Sequence record: KJ190158
Length of the DNA stretch: 64,000 bases
Source of the DNA: Escherichia phage FFH2
Strand: one strand, 5' to 3'
Within the stretch, counting starts at the first letter, position 1. Each line of letters starts with the position of its first letter. Below are positions 8,294 to 25,193 of the stretch, piece after piece. The translations under genes and the position numbers were made by a program. The notes below the pieces were generated by a model, which did no database searches, had not been told where the DNA came from, and worked only from the letters and a program-made list of their open reading frames with translations.

Positions 8294-8758
8294 GTGGAAG
8301 ACGGACGTTTAATGAAGTCTGAACGCAGGCTTATTGTGCAACTGATCCCAGAAACAGCTTGGTATAATAACCTCCGAAACGCTGTGAAGAAGAGTGAGTG
8401 GGATAAGATCCGCAAGAAGTGCTATAGAGAAGCCAACTACACCTGTGAGGTGTGCGGCGGTAAAGGAAGCAAACACCCAGTGGAGTGTCATGAACTTTAC
8501 ACTTTCGAAGAGGGAGTGATCCGGCTTGTCGGACTGATAGCGTTGTGCCCAGATTGCCACACATCGGTGCATCCTGGGTTAGCAAATATCCGTGGAAAGT
8601 ATGCTCAGGCAGTTAATCAGTTGGCTAAGGTGAATAAGATCACCAAAGGTATGGCAGAGGCGTATTACCGAGACTGCTTTGCAGAGTGGCGTGAGCTTAG
8701 TAAAGTTCCAGAATGGAAGACTGACTTTTCGTGGATAGAGGGTTACCTTGATGGCTAA
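8294..8758 (+). CDS. HNH-type zinc-finger nuclease-like protein
   Basis: CEVCGG ... ECHELY ... CPDCH..VH cysteine/histidine pattern. Confidence 0.45.
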   Translation: MEDGRLMKSERRLIVQLIPETAWYNNLRNAVKKSEWDKIRKKCYREANYTCEVCGGKGSKHPVECHELYTFEEGVIRLVGLIALCPDCHTSVHPGLANIRGKYAQAVNQLAKVNKITKGMAEAYYRDCFAEWRELSKVPEWKTDFSWIEGYLDG

Positions 8759-21346: not shown

Positions 21347-21625
21347 ATGAGCTGTGAAAAATCTTTTTTCTTTATTATTTACGGTAAAGATAACTGCCCA
21401 CATTGTGTAAGAGCAAAAGAATTTGCAGTCAGTAAGGGTCTGCCTTTTGTATATAAGACACTTGGCGAGGGTTACACAAAAGAAGAGCTTATTGAGAAGT
21501 GCAGTCCAATCGTACCCAGAACGTTGCCGCAGATCTTCTTAGAAAGTAATCTTGAAAGTGTCCATATAGGCGGTGCCGACGATTTCATCTCTTTTGTTAA
21601 AAATGGTTTTGGAGAGAAAAAGTGA
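21347..21625 (+). CDS. glutaredoxin/NrdH-like redoxin
   Basis: CxxC motif (DNCPHCVRAKEF); between nrdB and nrdD. Confidence 0.6.
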   Translation: MSCEKSFFFIIYGKDNCPHCVRAKEFAVSKGLPFVYKTLGEGYTKEELIEKCSPIVPRTLPQIFLESNLESVHIGGADDFISFVKNGFGEKK

Positions 21626-22482
21626 AAGTTGTAAAACGGGACGGTAGAGAAGAGTTCTATAACGGAATTAAGGTGATCAAGGCGGCAGAGTCCGCCTTAC
21701 TTGAGTCTGGACATACTGAAGAAGAAGCTTACCGGATCGCCTGCGCGGTTAATGAAGTTGTTGCTAACAATCTACCAACCGACCAGTGCACGATCTCTGT
21801 AAAAAATATCCATATCCTTGTTGAAGACGCTCTTATGGATATGGGTTTAAAATGTGCAGCCAGAGAATACATCCAGTATAGGCAGACAAGAGATAATAAC
21901 AGAGAGGCAGGTGGAAAACTGCTTGCAGATATTAGTGGCTTCTTGGATCGCACTTGTGATGAATTTACAAAAGAAAACGCAAATAAGCCTACCAATCATG
22001 TACACACTCATCGTGACCTGCTTGCAGGCATCCTTAGCAAACACCTTGCATCAACACAGATCCTGACAGACCGTGTCTCAGAAGAGCACAATAAAGGCTT
22101 CATCCATGTGCATGATCTTGACTACTTGATCAGTCCGTTAACAAACTGTTGTTTGGTAAATTATCCAGATATGTTGGAAAACGGATTCAACATTGGTAAC
22201 GCCCATGTCAGTAAGCCGAAGTCAATAGGGGTTGCAACAACAATCCTTAGCCAAATCTCTAGTGCAGTAGCTAGTGCTCAATATGGAGGTCAGACTATGA
22301 GCCATATTGATCATTATCTGGCACAGTATGCTGAAGCGACCTATGAGAAGAACCTTAAATTTTGCCAGGAACATTGGTTGCCAGATGCTGAGACTGTTGC
22401 AATGCAAATGACAGATAAAGACGTATTTGACAGCATGCAGACTTTGCTCTATCAAATCAATACGTTAACCTCTGTCAACGGT
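21622..22482 (+). CDS. nrdD: anaerobic ribonucleotide reductase NrdD, exon 1
   Basis: ATP-cone N-terminus (VVKRDGREEFYNGIK); reading frame ends ...SVNG then stop at the proposed 5' splice site (exon ends in U). Confidence 0.75.
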
Positions 22483-23280
22483 TAACAAACTGGCCGTTGT
22501 AAAACTCTCCTAACCTCATAAGAGGGGTCGGTAAATCCGGCTAACGGGGAACGCTAAGGCGAAAGCTATGCCAATCCCGTGACTAGTTCTTACAGGAGTT
22601 GGAACGGTTGTAACGACTAACGAAAGGCAGAGATGCTTGACAAACATTTCTGAACCAAGTAGTGTAGAGGTTAGTTGAAATACTAACTTCGAAATGGAGA
22701 GGCTCTATGAAAAAGATCATTCTTAATGGTGAAGAATCAAACTATGTGATTGATGAGGTTGGAAACGTATACGGAAAACGTGGAATGCTACACCCAATAT
22801 TGTGGGGAGGTTATGGAAAAGGTAACAAGCATGTTAAACGCCGTTATATGTACTCTTTCAACCACAAAGGTAAAAAGATTCGAATCCAAACCTCAAGGAT
22901 TGTTGCCTTGTATTGTTTGCCAGATGTCCCAGAAGACCCTGAAAACTGGGAAGTGAATCATAAAGACGGCAATACATTGAATGATCATCCGTCTAACCTA
23001 GAGTGGGTTTTGCCGGAAGATAATAAGAGACATGCTTTCCGAACAGGGCTTTGCCCAGGCAAGTGCTATAGGAAAGTGCAGGCATACAAAGGGAAAACCT
23101 TGGTGGGTGAATATCCTTCACTCTATGCCTGTGCAAAAGCCTTAAATTTGAACGTAGGTAACGTTCATAGGGCTATCGAAGGAAATGCCGAAGGTAAGCA
23201 TCTCACAATAAAGGGTTATTATCTTATTGAAGTAGAGTAAGAGATAGTCTGGCCCTGTGGAAACACAGGGGAGGAGACAG
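22483..23280 (+). mobile_element. putative group I intron interrupting nrdD, with internal HNH endonuclease ORF
   Basis: 798-bp insertion; splicing after T22482 and G23280 joins ...SVNG to QTPFITLSLG in frame; structured GC-rich flanks. Confidence 0.6.
22707..23240 (+). CDS. HNH homing endonuclease (intron-encoded)
   Basis: EVNHKDGNTLNDHPSNLEWV HNH motif; sits in the nrdD gap. Confidence 0.7.
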   Translation: MKKIILNGEESNYVIDEVGNVYGKRGMLHPILWGGYGKGNKHVKRRYMYSFNHKGKKIRIQTSRIVALYCLPDVPEDPENWEVNHKDGNTLNDHPSNLEWVLPEDNKRHAFRTGLCPGKCYRKVQAYKGKTLVGEYPSLYACAKALNLNVGNVHRAIEGNAEGKHLTIKGYYLIEVE

Positions 23281-24543
23281 CAGACTCCATTCATCACATT
23301 AAGTTTAGGACTGGATACCTCGGTCTTTGGTAGAATGATTACCAAAAATTACTTGAAAGTCCACAAAATGGGTCTTGGTGAAGAACGTATCACACCTGTG
23401 TTCCCTAAAGTGCTGTTCTTCCTAGAAGAGGGTGTCAACATGAACCCTGGAGATCCTAACTATGATTTGAAAAGATTGGCTCTGGAATGCTCTGCAGAGC
23501 GGATTTATCCTGACTTTGTTTCTGTTCCACTAAATCGTAAAGTGACAGGCTCGACAGATGGTAAAGTAACGAGCATGGGTTGCCGGAGTTTTCTTAGCAA
23601 ATACAATGACTTGGAAACAGGCGAGGAGAAATACCTTGGCAGATTTAACTTAGGCGTTGTTAGCCTTAACCTGCCAATGATTGCGGCAAAAGCTAAAACG
23701 GAAGGTGTTGATTTCTTTGCAGTTCTTGACGAATACTTGGATCTTGCATACGAGGCTCACCTTGTAAGGGTTAACCGTCTAAAAGGAACAAAGGCAGGGC
23801 AGAACCCTATCATGTGGTGTGAAGGCGCTCTTGCTCGCCTGGATCCTGAAGAGAGTATTGATAAACTCTTCTATGACGGGTACGCTTCCATCAGTATTGG
23901 GTATATTGGTGTGTATGAAACCTGTCAGATTTTGGGCAGAGAGGGTGACAAGGCTTTAGCTCTTGGAATCCTTCAGCACATGAAAGATGCTTGTGAGCGA
24001 TATAAGAAGGAAAGTGGACTAGCATTTAGCTTGTACGGCACCCCTTCTGAGAGTTTATGCTATAAAGCTGCAACCTGTCTGGATCGTGAATATCCAGAAG
24101 TGTTGAAGCACGAGCATGAATACCTCACCAACAGTTTCCATCAGCCAGTATGGATCAATAGTTCACCTTTTGATAAGTGGAAGTATGAAGAAGGTTTTGC
24201 TATGATCTCTTCTGGTGGCAACATTGGATATATAGAGACACCTAACCTGAAAAACAACCTGGATGCTTTAGAGGCTCTTGTTGACTTCGGGTATAAACAC
24301 ATTATGTATTTTGGTATTAACCAACCTGTGGATAAATGTCTCAAGTGTGGTTTCTCTGGTGAGTTCAGTGCAACAGCTAAAGGCTTTGTATGCCCAGAGT
24401 GTGGAAACCATGAAGAGGGAACGATCAGTGTAATTCGACGTGTGTCCGGATACCTTTCCAGTCCTAACTCCCGTCCTTACAATAAAGGTAAGCAAGCGGA
24501 AGTTATCGAGCGAGTTAAGCACTATGGAAGTTGTAGTTGCTGA
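23281..24543 (+). CDS. nrdD: anaerobic ribonucleotide reductase NrdD, exon 2
   Basis: C-terminal glycyl-radical motif RVSGY and Zn ribbon CLKCG...CPECG. Confidence 0.78.
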   Translation, partial: QTPFITLSLGLDTSVFGRMITKNYLKVHKMGLGEERITPVFPKVLFFLEEGVNMNPGDPNYDLKRLALECSAERIYPDFVSVPLNRKVTGSTDGKVTSMGCRSFLSKYNDLETGEEKYLGRFNLGVVSLNLPMIAAKAKTEGVDFFAVLDEYLDLAYEAHLVRVNRLKGTKAGQNPIMWCEGALARLDPEESIDKLFYDGYASISIGYIGVYETCQILGREGDKALALGILQHMKDACERYKKESGLAFSLYGTPSESLCYKAATCLDREYPEVLKHEHEYLTNSFHQPVWINSSPFDKWKYEEGFAMISSGGNIGYIETPNLKNNLDALEALVDFGYKHIMYFGINQPVDKCLKCGFSGEFSATAKGFVCPECGNHEEGTISVIRRVSGYLSSPNSRPYNKGKQAEVIERVKHYGSCSC

Positions 24544-24606: not shown

Positions 24607-24723
24607 ATGTCTACAGGTATTTATAAAATTTGCAAGTGTGGTTGTCGTTGCAATCTTCGTTGGTGCAAGGCACTGGACGATTTTATTTGGCATTGCCCTA
24701 AATGTGATGCGGAGTATCTATGA
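24607..24723 (+). CDS. small Cys-rich zinc-ribbon-like protein (38 aa)
   Basis: AGGAGG SD; CKCGCRC ... CPKC; ATGA overlap with nrdG start. Confidence 0.4.
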   Translation: MSTGIYKICKCGCRCNLRWCKALDDFIWHCPKCDAEYL

Positions 24724-25193
24724 ACATTGCCGGATACACAGAAATATCTTACACCGAAGGACCAGGTATTAGAACTGCCTTATGGGTATCTGGGTGCCCA
24801 CACGCTTGCCCTGGTTGCTTTAATCAGGCATTTTGGTCAAAAGATAAGGGGAGAGAGTTTACTGAAGAAGATTTGCAAAAAATCTTGTCAGATTTAGATA
24901 ACCCGTCTGTGTGCGGTATCTCTCTGCTGGGTGGAGAACCATTAGCATACTATAATGAGCCAGATATTATTAGCCTGATGGAGAAAATTAAGGAAAAATT
25001 TGGTGACAAGAAAACTATTCTTGTATATACTGGGTTCACATTTGACCATATCTCTAGTGATGTTCTTAAACTGGCTGATATCATCATTGACGGTAAGTAT
25101 GTAAAAGATTTACCAACCAAGAAACCGTTCCGAGGTAGCGATAACCAAAGAATGTTTAAAAAAGTAGCAGGCGGTTGGGTTCAGGTAGACTAG
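24720..25193 (+). CDS. nrdG: anaerobic RNR activating protein (radical SAM)
   Basis: CPHACPGC (CxxxCxxC) in GPGIRTALWVSGCPHACPGCFN. Confidence 0.85.
   Translation: MNIAGYTEISYTEGPGIRTALWVSGCPHACPGCFNQAFWSKDKGREFTEEDLQKILSDLDNPSVCGISLLGGEPLAYYNEPDIISLMEKIKEKFGDKKTILVYTGFTFDHISSDVLKLADIIIDGKYVKDLPTKKPFRGSDNQRMFKKVAGGWVQVD

Follow-up and report, generated by a model that had tools for sequence, protein, structure and literature searches.

A probable mobile group IA2 intron with an HNH open reading frame in the nrdD gene of a vequintavirus

The gene for the class III ribonucleotide reductase NrdD lies in two pieces in the DNA of Escherichia phage FFH2 analysed here (record KJ190158; the whole stretch of 64,000 nucleotides is referred to as the window), raising the question of whether one gene is interrupted by an intron or two separate genes are present. 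Megablast aligns the window with Vequintavirus genomes at 95-98% identity, and its source is by this measure a Vequintavirus, an rV5-like E. coli myovirus. The initial annotation of the locus had proposed that nrdD is interrupted at ...VNG/QTPF... by a group I intron containing an HNH open reading frame (ORF), and the precise absence of the insert in relatives together with a full P1-P10 core upholds this proposal. We put at about 0.9 the probability that a mobile and optional IA2 group I intron carrying an HNH ORF splits the vequintavirus nrdD.

The boundaries drawn initially for the two pieces, ending at 22482 and resuming at 23281 across a gap of 798 bp, agree with both the ORF listing and the protein profiles. 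The listing gives an upstream frame (21622-22485) with the C-terminal sequence ...LTSVNG followed by a TAA stop, and a downstream frame (23257-24543) with the C-terminal end ...VIRRVSGYLSS.... Exon 1, whose GTG start codon overlaps the stop codon of the glutaredoxin gene, matches the Pfam ATP-cone domain (E 3.8e-14) and positions 1-154 of the NRDD profile, and exon 2, read from 23281, matches NRDD positions 156-562, so that the two halves abut in the profile. The Gly_radical match of exon 2 (E 4.6e-23) bears out the glycyl-radical motif RVSGY previously noticed at its end. An NRDD barrel, the Gly_radical domain, RVSGY and a nearby radical-SAM activase, NrdG (24720-25193), identify the product as a class III reductase. 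Both genes of a class I reductase, nrdA and nrdB, lie directly upstream.

The comparison with intron-less nrdD genes that had been suggested as a check places the junction exactly. The bases equivalent to 22482 and 23281 are contiguous in 74 intron-less Vequintavirus records, the insert being precisely missing from these homologous alleles with the reading frame left intact. The joined exons amount to 2124 nt, the length of the coding sequence in the intron-less phage BP9, and the protein spanning the junction is identical in the window, BP9, rV5 and DrSchubert. DrSchubert carries the closest uninterrupted gene, differing from the joined exons of the window only at positions -1 and +3 (GGG/CAA vs GGT/CAG). 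All four intron-less junctions that were read, those of BP9, rV5 and DrSchubert included, have G at position -1, and the exact intron-bearing junction sequence occurs in 0 of the 74 intron-less records.

Public records show the locus to be polymorphic, in three states: intron-less (about 74-80), intron with ORF (26) and intron with the ORF deleted (14). Between phages whose copies of exon 2 share only 93-96.5% identity, the intron sequences agree at 97-99.6%. The ORF-less allele measures 257 nt and retains a 25-nt leftover of ORF codons 8-15. Phage rV5 is intron-less at the nrdD site, and its genome paper names introns in terminase only; a second optional intron is present in some relatives. 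Within the genus all three stages of a homing cycle are represented at a single site, from the empty allele through the intron with its endonuclease to the intron from which the endonuclease has been deleted, and the vequintavirus nrdD site would suit as a natural system for the spread and loss of coliphage introns.

Table 1. Coordinates of the nrdD exons, the intron and its structural elements (window numbering).
Feature	Position	Strand	Detail
nrdD exon 1	21622..22482	+	287 codons; ATP-cone and NrdD barrel (N-terminal part)
Group I intron, subgroup IA2, SPO1-like architecture	22483..23280	+	798 nt; starts with in-frame TAA, ends with G23280
P1	22476..22499	+	exon CAACGGU 22476-22482 / internal guide GCCGUUG 22493-22499, 7 bp
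P3 5' strand	22505..22510	+	CUCUCC, pairs with GGAGAG 22696-22701
hpA	22514-22525	+	CCUC-AUAA-GAGG; extra hairpin between P3 and J3/4
hpB	22527-22541	+	GUCGG-UAAAU-CCGGC; second extra hairpin between P3 and J3/4
P4-P5-P6 domain	22544..22609	+	P4 ACGGGG/UCCCGU; P5/P5a with GAAA loop; P6 GAC/GUU; P6a
P7 5' strand	22615..22619	+	GACUA, guanosine-binding helix; pairs with UAGUC 23245-23249
P7.1-GUA-P7.2	22620..22690	+	P7.1 22620-22663; GUA 22664-22666; P7.2 22667-22690
P3 3' strand	22696..22701	+	GGAGAG; doubles as Shine-Dalgarno of the HNH ORF
P8	22702..23238	+	GCUCUA 22702-22707 / UAGAGU 23233-23238; loop is the whole endonuclease ORF
Intron ORF, I-HmuI-like HNH homing endonuclease (predicted)	22707..23240	+	177 aa, intact
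Intron 3' end	23239..23280	+	J8/7 AAGAGA; P7 3' strand UAGUC 23245-23249; P9; 10-nt tail; G23280
P9	23253-23270	+	CCCUGUG-GAAA-CACAGGG
nrdD exon 2	23281..24543	+	420 codons plus stop; glycyl-radical motif RVSGY at end

The insert has the anatomy of a group I intron (Table 1), with a conserved P3-P9 core, the P3/P7 pseudoknot and the P, Q, R and S elements. The 5' splice site lies at U22482, the final base of exon 1, which forms the splice-site pair U22482·G22493 in P1; in the ORF-less haplotype P1 reads AAACGGU/GCCGUUU, a compensatory change. The P1 loop is UAACAAACUG, and its 3' end, CUG (22490-22492), forms P10 with CAG (23281-23283) of exon 2, directly after the terminal G of the intron. 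P10 covaries, relatives with a P1 loop ending in AUG having frame-compatible 3' exons that start with CAU. A conserved GUAAC stands just ahead of the P7 5' strand, which is unchanged across all relatives, whereas 11 different P3 helices occur among them, all completely paired. P7.1, which is enlarged and carries TTGACA in its loop, and P7.2 lie between P7 and the P3 3' strand and are joined by G-U-A, the signature of subgroup IA2 (PMC3428280). The hairpins hpA and hpB are found in SPO1 and 8 metagenomic relatives, and both covary in 10-11 relatives, the SPO1 intron included. P6 and P6a likewise covary among relatives, BLAST matches the P4-P5-P6 block to regions of Bacillus and Listeria phages that bear introns, and P8 in the ORF-less haplotype reads GUCUGA/UCAGGC. 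Of the GC-rich ends described initially only a modest enrichment remains, with 45% GC in the 5' 224 nt and 57.5% in the 3' 40 nt against 42.7% for the window.

Compensatory changes distinguish the two Vequintavirus haplotypes in P1, P3, hpB, P6a, P8 and P9. With the ORF excised, the intron has a folding z-score of -6.16, and none of 200 shuffled sequences folds as well. Helices assigned by hand are 100% paired within each sequence and 50-72% paired when strands are swapped between sequences; assignment by eye brings a selection bias to this contrast, which is offset only in part by unconstrained minimum free energy (MFE) folding, which for the window and 7 of 10 relatives returns P1, P3, hpA, hpB, P4, P7.1, P7.2, P8 and P9. 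Folding of each sequence with strand-swap controls was used in place of a MAFFT alignment of ten ORF-excised cores, in which the variable hairpins were mis-aligned. Pattern scans of metagenomes and genomes returned 56 loci, mostly chance matches without the remaining core, and only about 12 were real introns.

The Rfam group I model (Intron_gpI, RF00028) scores the locus weakly. In permissive mode the window reaches 27.7 bits (E 7.8e-5) and the 257-nt ORF-less allele 29.8 bits (E 1e-5, full model covered), both short of the gathering score of 50 bits, and in gathering mode nothing was found in the entire window. Phage introns are noted to be under-represented in the model (PMC11878797), and the SPO1 intron, whose splicing is experimentally established (PMC11878797), scores only 25.6 bits, so a sub-threshold score is typical of the SPO1-like subclass.

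The HNH ORF that had been placed within the insert is present as described. It scores 29.3 bits against Pfam HNH_3 (cut-off 24.8), contains the HNH motif HKDGN..N....NLEWV and matches PHROG 59 (E 1.5e-26). Against I-HmuI (PDB 1U3E) residues 8-160 align end-to-end on 8-159 (E 2.7e-4), and BLASTP gives 25% identity over 167 aa (E 1e-8); the C-terminus has a weak NUMOD-like match (18.4 bits vs a cut-off of 27). At 25% identity the likeness to I-HmuI is remote, and the product is a predicted endonuclease that may either nick DNA or cut both strands, with a specificity presumably directed to the nrdD site. The ORF is under purifying selection: the differences summed over five relatives comprise 46 nt and only 5 aa, synonymous changes being dominant.

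These features suggest a splicing path to a full-length reductase. Transcription through nrdD would yield a pre-mRNA in which the intron folds, the seven terminal bases of exon 1 pairing with the internal guide in P1 and the P3-P9 core building a guanosine site in P7. Free guanosine would attack 3' of U22482, G23280 would then occupy the same guanosine site with exon 2 aligned by P10, and ligation would join the exons as ...GTCAACGGT/CAGACTCC..., giving an mRNA for a 707-aa NrdD of the same length as in intron-less relatives. In a mixed infection nrdD alleles lacking the intron would be cut or nicked by the endonuclease close to the insertion site, and recombinational repair would copy the intron and the adjacent synonymous exon bases into the cut alleles (homing).

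Could the insert instead be a homing-endonuclease gene that does not splice, leaving two nrdD genes whose products come together post-translationally? Precedent comes from phage Aeh1, where a ribonucleotide reductase gene, nrdA, is likewise interrupted by an HNH homing-endonuclease gene, mobE (PMC7344957, PMC3653736), and a C-terminal fragment could begin in the window at an in-frame GTG (23257). However, that GTG frame stems from a single extra G private to the window, five relatives being without it, and no Shine-Dalgarno sequence precedes exon 2. Moreover mobE is free-standing, lacks a ribozyme or splicing and leaves two polypeptides, whereas the nrdD ORF is enclosed by a complete, covarying group I core; nor would an endonuclease cassette explain why 14 records carry a 257-nt ORF-less version at this position. 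We therefore regard a split gene as extremely unlikely. An intein or other protein-level intervening sequence, although inteins are known in phage ribonucleotide reductases, is incompatible with the in-frame TAA at 22483 and with an exon 1 frame closed through the insert, and the Pfam scan returned no intein domains; this reading was rejected, as was a group II intron, given the in-frame stop codon, the insert's size and the absence of corresponding domains.

The same extra G, together with the sub-threshold Rfam score and the presence of nrdA and nrdB, could also point to a decayed, splicing-defective relic in an nrdD pseudogene, the phage relying on its class I enzyme. Yet both exons are still open and conserved, the core helices are all intact, the extra G sits in the unpaired tail before the 3' splice site, outside P9, P9.0 and P10, and the low score is common to the functional SPO1 intron. 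Selection on the intron ORF also speaks against decay, leaving a relic very improbable. A spliced nrdD with an optional intron is the preferred reading.

The arrangement of the ORF start suggests a coupling between the ribozyme and its endonuclease. The region of the P3 3' strand and ORF start reads GGAGAGGCUCUAUG, and since the Shine-Dalgarno sequence is the P3 strand itself and the AUG lies in P8, folding of the ribozyme and translation of the endonuclease should exclude each other. An internal promoter freeing the ribosome-binding site was considered as an escape from this sequestration and is unsupported: the sigma-70-type candidate (TTGACA at 22637, N17, TAGTGT) was not among the matches of a consensus scan, and promoter-like matches in this region are no more frequent than expected by chance. 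With P3 and P8 doubling as the translation-initiation region, splicing and enzyme synthesis would be exclusive RNA states. A broader proposal combines three elements: that the SPO1-like architecture is a distinct, widespread subclass systematically missed by RF00028, that splicing and homing-enzyme synthesis are mutually exclusive here, and that the intron is a possible weapon. The subclass may be marked by the two extra hairpins between the P3 5' strand and J3/4 and by a conserved P1 loop, UAACAAAAUG, supplying P10. If the proposal were true the intron could serve co-infecting vequintaviruses as a weapon against one another, a role reported for the ΦPA3 intron endonuclease in phage competition (PMC11620839). 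Taken jointly, we consider these elements speculative and doubtful.

As a mobile element the nrdD intron is of an ordinary kind, and it leaves knowledge of group I introns unchanged. The spliced annotation already stands in near-identical public phage records: BASEL GenBank records give the nrdD coding sequence as a two-piece join, following the comparative method of PMC8594841. In many public records gene callers break nrdD into two or three "genes", and the locus illustrates how phage introns are mis-annotated, with split gene calls and a default Rfam threshold that reports nothing.

Introns of subgroup IA2 that encode HNH nicking endonucleases are known from conserved replication and nucleotide-metabolism genes of other phages (I-BasI, I-HmuII, I-PfoP3I and Twort nrdE; PMC3428280, PMC3653736). 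These differ from the nrdD intron in gene, insertion site and ORF position, the I-PfoP3I ORF, for instance, beginning in P6a and not in P8.

The parallel to the T4 nrdD (sunY) intron drawn in the initial annotation, with an endonuclease of HNH type as the exception, holds in part. Both are IA2-type phage introns in the same conserved region of the same gene, both start with UAAC, and they have sequence motifs of P4, P7 and J8/7 in common. However, the sunY site lies 32 nt upstream (E/YEVNTLFSSNGQTPF vs VNG/QTPF), and the T4 endonuclease, I-TevII, is a GIY-YIG enzyme encoded 3' of an uninterrupted core, after P9; neither of these two marks of the sunY lineage is found in the window, where the HNH ORF occupies P8. 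The T4 intron also lacks the hairpins between P3 and P4 and scores 105 bits with Rfam. A T4 intron with a swapped endonuclease was rejected on the different site, the HNH ORF in P8 and the extra hairpins. The 32-nt shift, the different endonuclease and ORF position and the closer likeness to SPO1 argue for an independent invasion of a neighbouring site.

The intron in gene 31 of Bacillus phage SPO1 (DNA polymerase, I-HmuI) is, from its architecture, a closer relative of the nrdD intron than T4 sunY. Both run from the P3 5' strand through two hairpins, UAA and P4 to P7, P7.1, GUA, P7.2, the P3 3' strand and P8, both carry the endonuclease ORF in the P8 loop and both score below the Rfam threshold. 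A literature search for a name of the two extra hairpins (P3.1/P3.2) returned nothing relevant. The encoded HNH proteins are colinear (174 aa in SPO1 vs 177 aa), though only 25% identical. The SPO1 intron differs in its host gene and in the phylum of its host, and has a P2 hairpin and a far larger second hairpin. Its ORF has a Shine-Dalgarno sequence of its own within the P8 loop, whereas that of the nrdD intron is a strand of P3.

The insert that interrupts nrdD is a group I intron. Pfam places the first and third ORFs on two portions of the same protein (ATP-cone plus NRDD profile positions 1-154, and, from 23281, NRDD positions 156-562 plus the glycyl-radical domain), with an above cut-off HNH_3 match in the middle ORF between them, and therefore the initial annotation of a single nrdD split by 798 nt stands. 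The gene follows nrdB and a glutaredoxin gene and precedes the radical-SAM activase nrdG (Pfam). Its most probable start codon is GTG 21622, which overlaps with the stop of the glutaredoxin gene (GTGA). Counted from there the ATP-cone spans the first 91 aa of the product (E 3.8e-14), and the FV3 and BP9 nrdD annotations also start at GTG; the BASEL CDS start, an ATG equivalent to 21835, loses most of the ATP-cone. A cysteine-rich 38-aa ORF (MSTGIYKICKCGCRCNLRWCKALDDFIWHCPKCDAEYL, 24607-24723), hypothetical in relatives' annotation, lies between nrdD and nrdG, and the WalterGehring spacer additionally holds a 993-nt putative homing-endonuclease gene.

Features of the split nrdD gene and its intron (window coordinates; RNA letters for helices)
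Feature	Position	Strand	Remark
ORF, nrdD first piece	21622-22485	+	ends ...LTSVNG, then TAA
Middle ORF	22707-23240	+	177 aa
ORF, nrdD last piece	23257-24543	+	C-terminus ...VIRRVSGYLSS...
P1	U22482·G22493		pair at splice site
P3	22505-10 with 22696-701		
hpA, hpB	22514-22525, 22527-22541		hairpins between P3 5' strand and UAA-P4
P4/P5/P6/P6a			assigned helices of core
P7			GACUA/UAGUC
P7.1, GUA, P7.2			consecutive elements of core
P8, P9, terminal G	G23280		intron's last base
P10	CUG 22490-92 with CAG 23281-83		

Vequintavirus (rV5-like) coliphages match this region of the window at 95-98% identity, and many of them contain a query with 22482 joined to 23281 without a break, bearing out the exon junction initially proposed. 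A 60-nt junction query found the site uninterrupted in 74 records, none of which (0/74) has the exact junction of the intron-bearing alleles. These read GGT/CAG (slash at the junction), whereas the intron-less alleles read (DrSchubert, BP9 and rV5) have GGG/CAA; the best intron-less match, DrSchubert, differs only at these two bases. The peptide across the junction (...TSVNGQTPFITL...) is identical in BP9 and rV5, and the two exons together measure 2124 nt, as does the CDS of BP9, which lacks the intron. Shifting both boundaries by one base leaves the protein unchanged and breaks both group I rules, a U before the 5' splice site and a G at the intron end, and the intron was therefore placed at 22483-23280. 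Both junction differences are synonymous, fall at the U(-1) required by the ribozyme and where P10 gains a pair, and may also affect endonuclease recognition. A 4-bp hairpin (GGAG 23273-76 with CUCC 23285-88) spans the 3' splice site; its counterpart in the haplotype without the endonuclease ORF (ORF-less) is GGGG/CCCC, a single event that pairs an A-to-G in the intron with a synonymous T-to-C in the exon. In the intron tail (23267-23271) the window's CACAGGGGAGG has one G more than the CACAGGGAGG of all five ORF-containing (ORF-plus) relatives compared; this G falls outside the helices and could reflect either true variation or an error in sequencing the homopolymer.

At the curated threshold Rfam has no match in the window, while permissive settings give an Intron_gpI match (27.7 bits, E 7.8e-5) that is mis-registered because of the ORF. 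Decisive for group I identity is a natural control: 14 relatives, e.g. AlexBoehm, have a 257-nt ORF-less intron at the same nrdD site, which aligns to the full-length Rfam model (29.8 bits, E 1e-5), and the helices were assigned from this alignment together with reading of the sequence. The sub-threshold score is a property of an architecture shared with the DNA-polymerase intron of Bacillus phage SPO1 and is not counted against the intron, since the SPO1 intron, a validated self-splicer (PMC11878797), itself scores only 25.6 bits (T4 sunY, 105). P7.1 and P7.2 are joined by G-U-A, the criterion for subgroup IA2 (PMC3428280). With the ORF excised the RNA folds at -103 kcal/mol versus -73 ± 5 for shuffles (z = -6.2), and its unconstrained minimum-energy structure includes every assigned helix but P7, which forms a pseudoknot with P3. 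The core differs by ~15% between the two Vequintavirus haplotypes, with compensating changes in P1 (CAACGGU/GCCGUUG versus AAACGGU/GCCGUUU), P3 (CUCUCC/GGAGAG versus CUCUGC/GCAGGG) and likewise in hpB, P6a, P8 and P9. Helix map, ORF-less control, fold z-score and covariation uphold the group I assignment first made from the sequence alone.

Searching public contigs (viral, metagenome and genome) for sequence patterns gave mostly chance matches but also 8 more distinct introns sharing the 5' signature. One of them interrupts a gene resembling family B DNA polymerases (a host-gene reading made for L053 only) and another a lysin-like gene; the others lie in further phage genes. The signature, UAACAAAAUGGCC...CUAACGGGGAAC, occurs in metagenomic or phage contigs labelled L008/L011, L009, L012, L013, L039, L053 and L057; the polymerase reading comes from the upstream exon of L053, related motifs occur in the L057 flanks, and L008 is the lysin-like case. 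In these introns the endonuclease ORF is in P6, not P8, or is absent, and L057 apparently has no P8 at all. Across the relatives and SPO1, helices are fully paired within each sequence, a figure inflated by picking strands by eye, and 50-72% paired when strands are swapped between sequences; separate folding of each core, which is independent of that choice, gave the same helices complete in 8 of 11 sequences. In the relatives, frame-compatible 3' splice sites lie 2-10 nt past P9 (8-10 nt except in L012). Relatives whose P1 loop ends in AUG start the 3' exon with CAU, as CUG goes with CAG in the window, a correspondence that supports the predicted P10.

If nrdD were split without splicing, on the model of Aeh1 nrdA/mobE, the last piece would be translated separately, and the GTG-started ORF at 23257 does enter exon 2 in frame. 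It does so solely through the extra G, an insertion private to the window, and this reading leaves unexplained both the covarying core and the survival of a 257-nt version without the ORF; we regard it as very improbable. Decay of the intron is unlikely, every helix and both exons being intact. With a TAA at 22483, the insert cannot be an intein.

Within the group I intron, the Shine-Dalgarno of the ORF is the 3' strand of P3 (within GGAGAGGCUCUAUG), its AUG consists of the final base of the P8 5' strand and two further bases, and its stop codon shares bases with the 3' strand of P8. The folded ribozyme would conceal this initiation region, and a ribosome bound there would disrupt P3/P8. Comparable ribosome-binding-site sequestration in T4 intron endonucleases is lifted by internal late promoters (PMC2988022). 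P7.1 is ~40 nt larger in the ORF-plus haplotype than its ORF-less counterpart, a minimal ACC-UUUU-GGU hairpin, and within the enlarged loop TTGACA, a -35 hexamer without mismatch, precedes TAGTGT by 17 nt (22628-22665); this candidate promoter has a poor -10 partner and is absent from the promoter scan output.

In the phage collection ~74-80 records are intron-less, 26 have intron plus ORF and 14 the ORF-less intron, counts that include some GenBank/RefSeq duplicates. Among the ORF-plus phages compared the intron is 97-99.6% identical and exon 2 only 93-96.5%, while five comparisons of the ORF together give 46 nucleotide differences but only 5 at the amino-acid level. These patterns are compatible with recent lateral spread, and the few amino-acid changes indicate that the ORF encodes a functional protein. 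The ORF-less form retains a ~25-nt stretch resembling ORF codons 8-15 (20/25 bases) and therefore arose by ORF deletion. Outside Vequintavirus phages, identity to the nearest proteins reaches no more than 50%, and only along a portion of the ORF; full-length matches are at ~32%. Enzymes of the I-HmuI type nick a single strand, and I-HmuI itself, encoded by the SPO1 intron, cuts intron-plus and intron-less DNA alike (PMC3428280, PMC2988022).

A second group I intron, td/sunY-like and with a different HNH ORF, is present in phita32 (L002; 2468-3217), C2, JEP1 and L010, at a site equivalent to window 23578/23579 in codons ...SMG/CRSF..., aligning with T4 ...PMGCRSFL.... The genus therefore has at least two optional nrdD intron sites, in addition to the T4 site. 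The window is without this second intron, and no other group I core motifs were found in it. At the nrdD locus about 20 GenBank records named 'Campylobacter phage' (MG0656xx; among them C2, A141 and A147) share 92-98% identity with E. coli vequintaviruses, which suggests mislabelled hosts or contaminating coliphages. Elsewhere in the window lies a 154-aa Cys/His-rich ORF (8294-8758) that, judged by its size and its place in the gene order, seems to be the counterpart of the free-standing 'putative homing endonuclease' of WalterGehring (bas51_0209).

Elements of this kind are known, and this one is already on record: BASEL records WalterGehring, EmilHeitz and AlexBoehm give the nrdD CDS as two joined segments that enclose a 'putative homing endonuclease', the boundaries having been fixed by comparative annotation (PMC8594841), and the join lengths match those found here (2708 - 797 = 2168 - 257 = 1911). 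A literature search found no paper on the structure or splicing of the window's nrdD intron. New here are the exact boundaries, the helix map, the overlap of P3/P8 with the translation-initiation region, the population picture and the affinity to SPO1 instead of T4.

The initial parallel with the T4 nrdD (sunY) intron holds for the gene and only in part for the intron. The T4 site (...QAYE/YEVNTLFSSNGQTPF...) lies 32 nt upstream of the window's. The T4 core is uninterrupted and followed by the GIY-YIG gene I-TevII, whereas the window's HNH ORF sits in the P8 loop; in T4 the P3 strand directly adjoins J3/4, whereas in the window hpA and hpB, both of which covary, intervene. The claim of an HNH-type enzyme was well founded: besides its HNH_3 match, the ORF is colinear with I-HmuI from end to end (PDB 1U3E; residues 8-160 on 8-159, E 2.7e-4; 25% identity across 167 aa, E 1e-8) with the HKDGN...N...NLxWV motif conserved. 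The SPO1 intron has the same helix order, including the two hairpins, and its I-HmuI gene fills the P8 loop as the window ORF does; the window intron is not that of T4, and its closest counterpart is that of SPO1.
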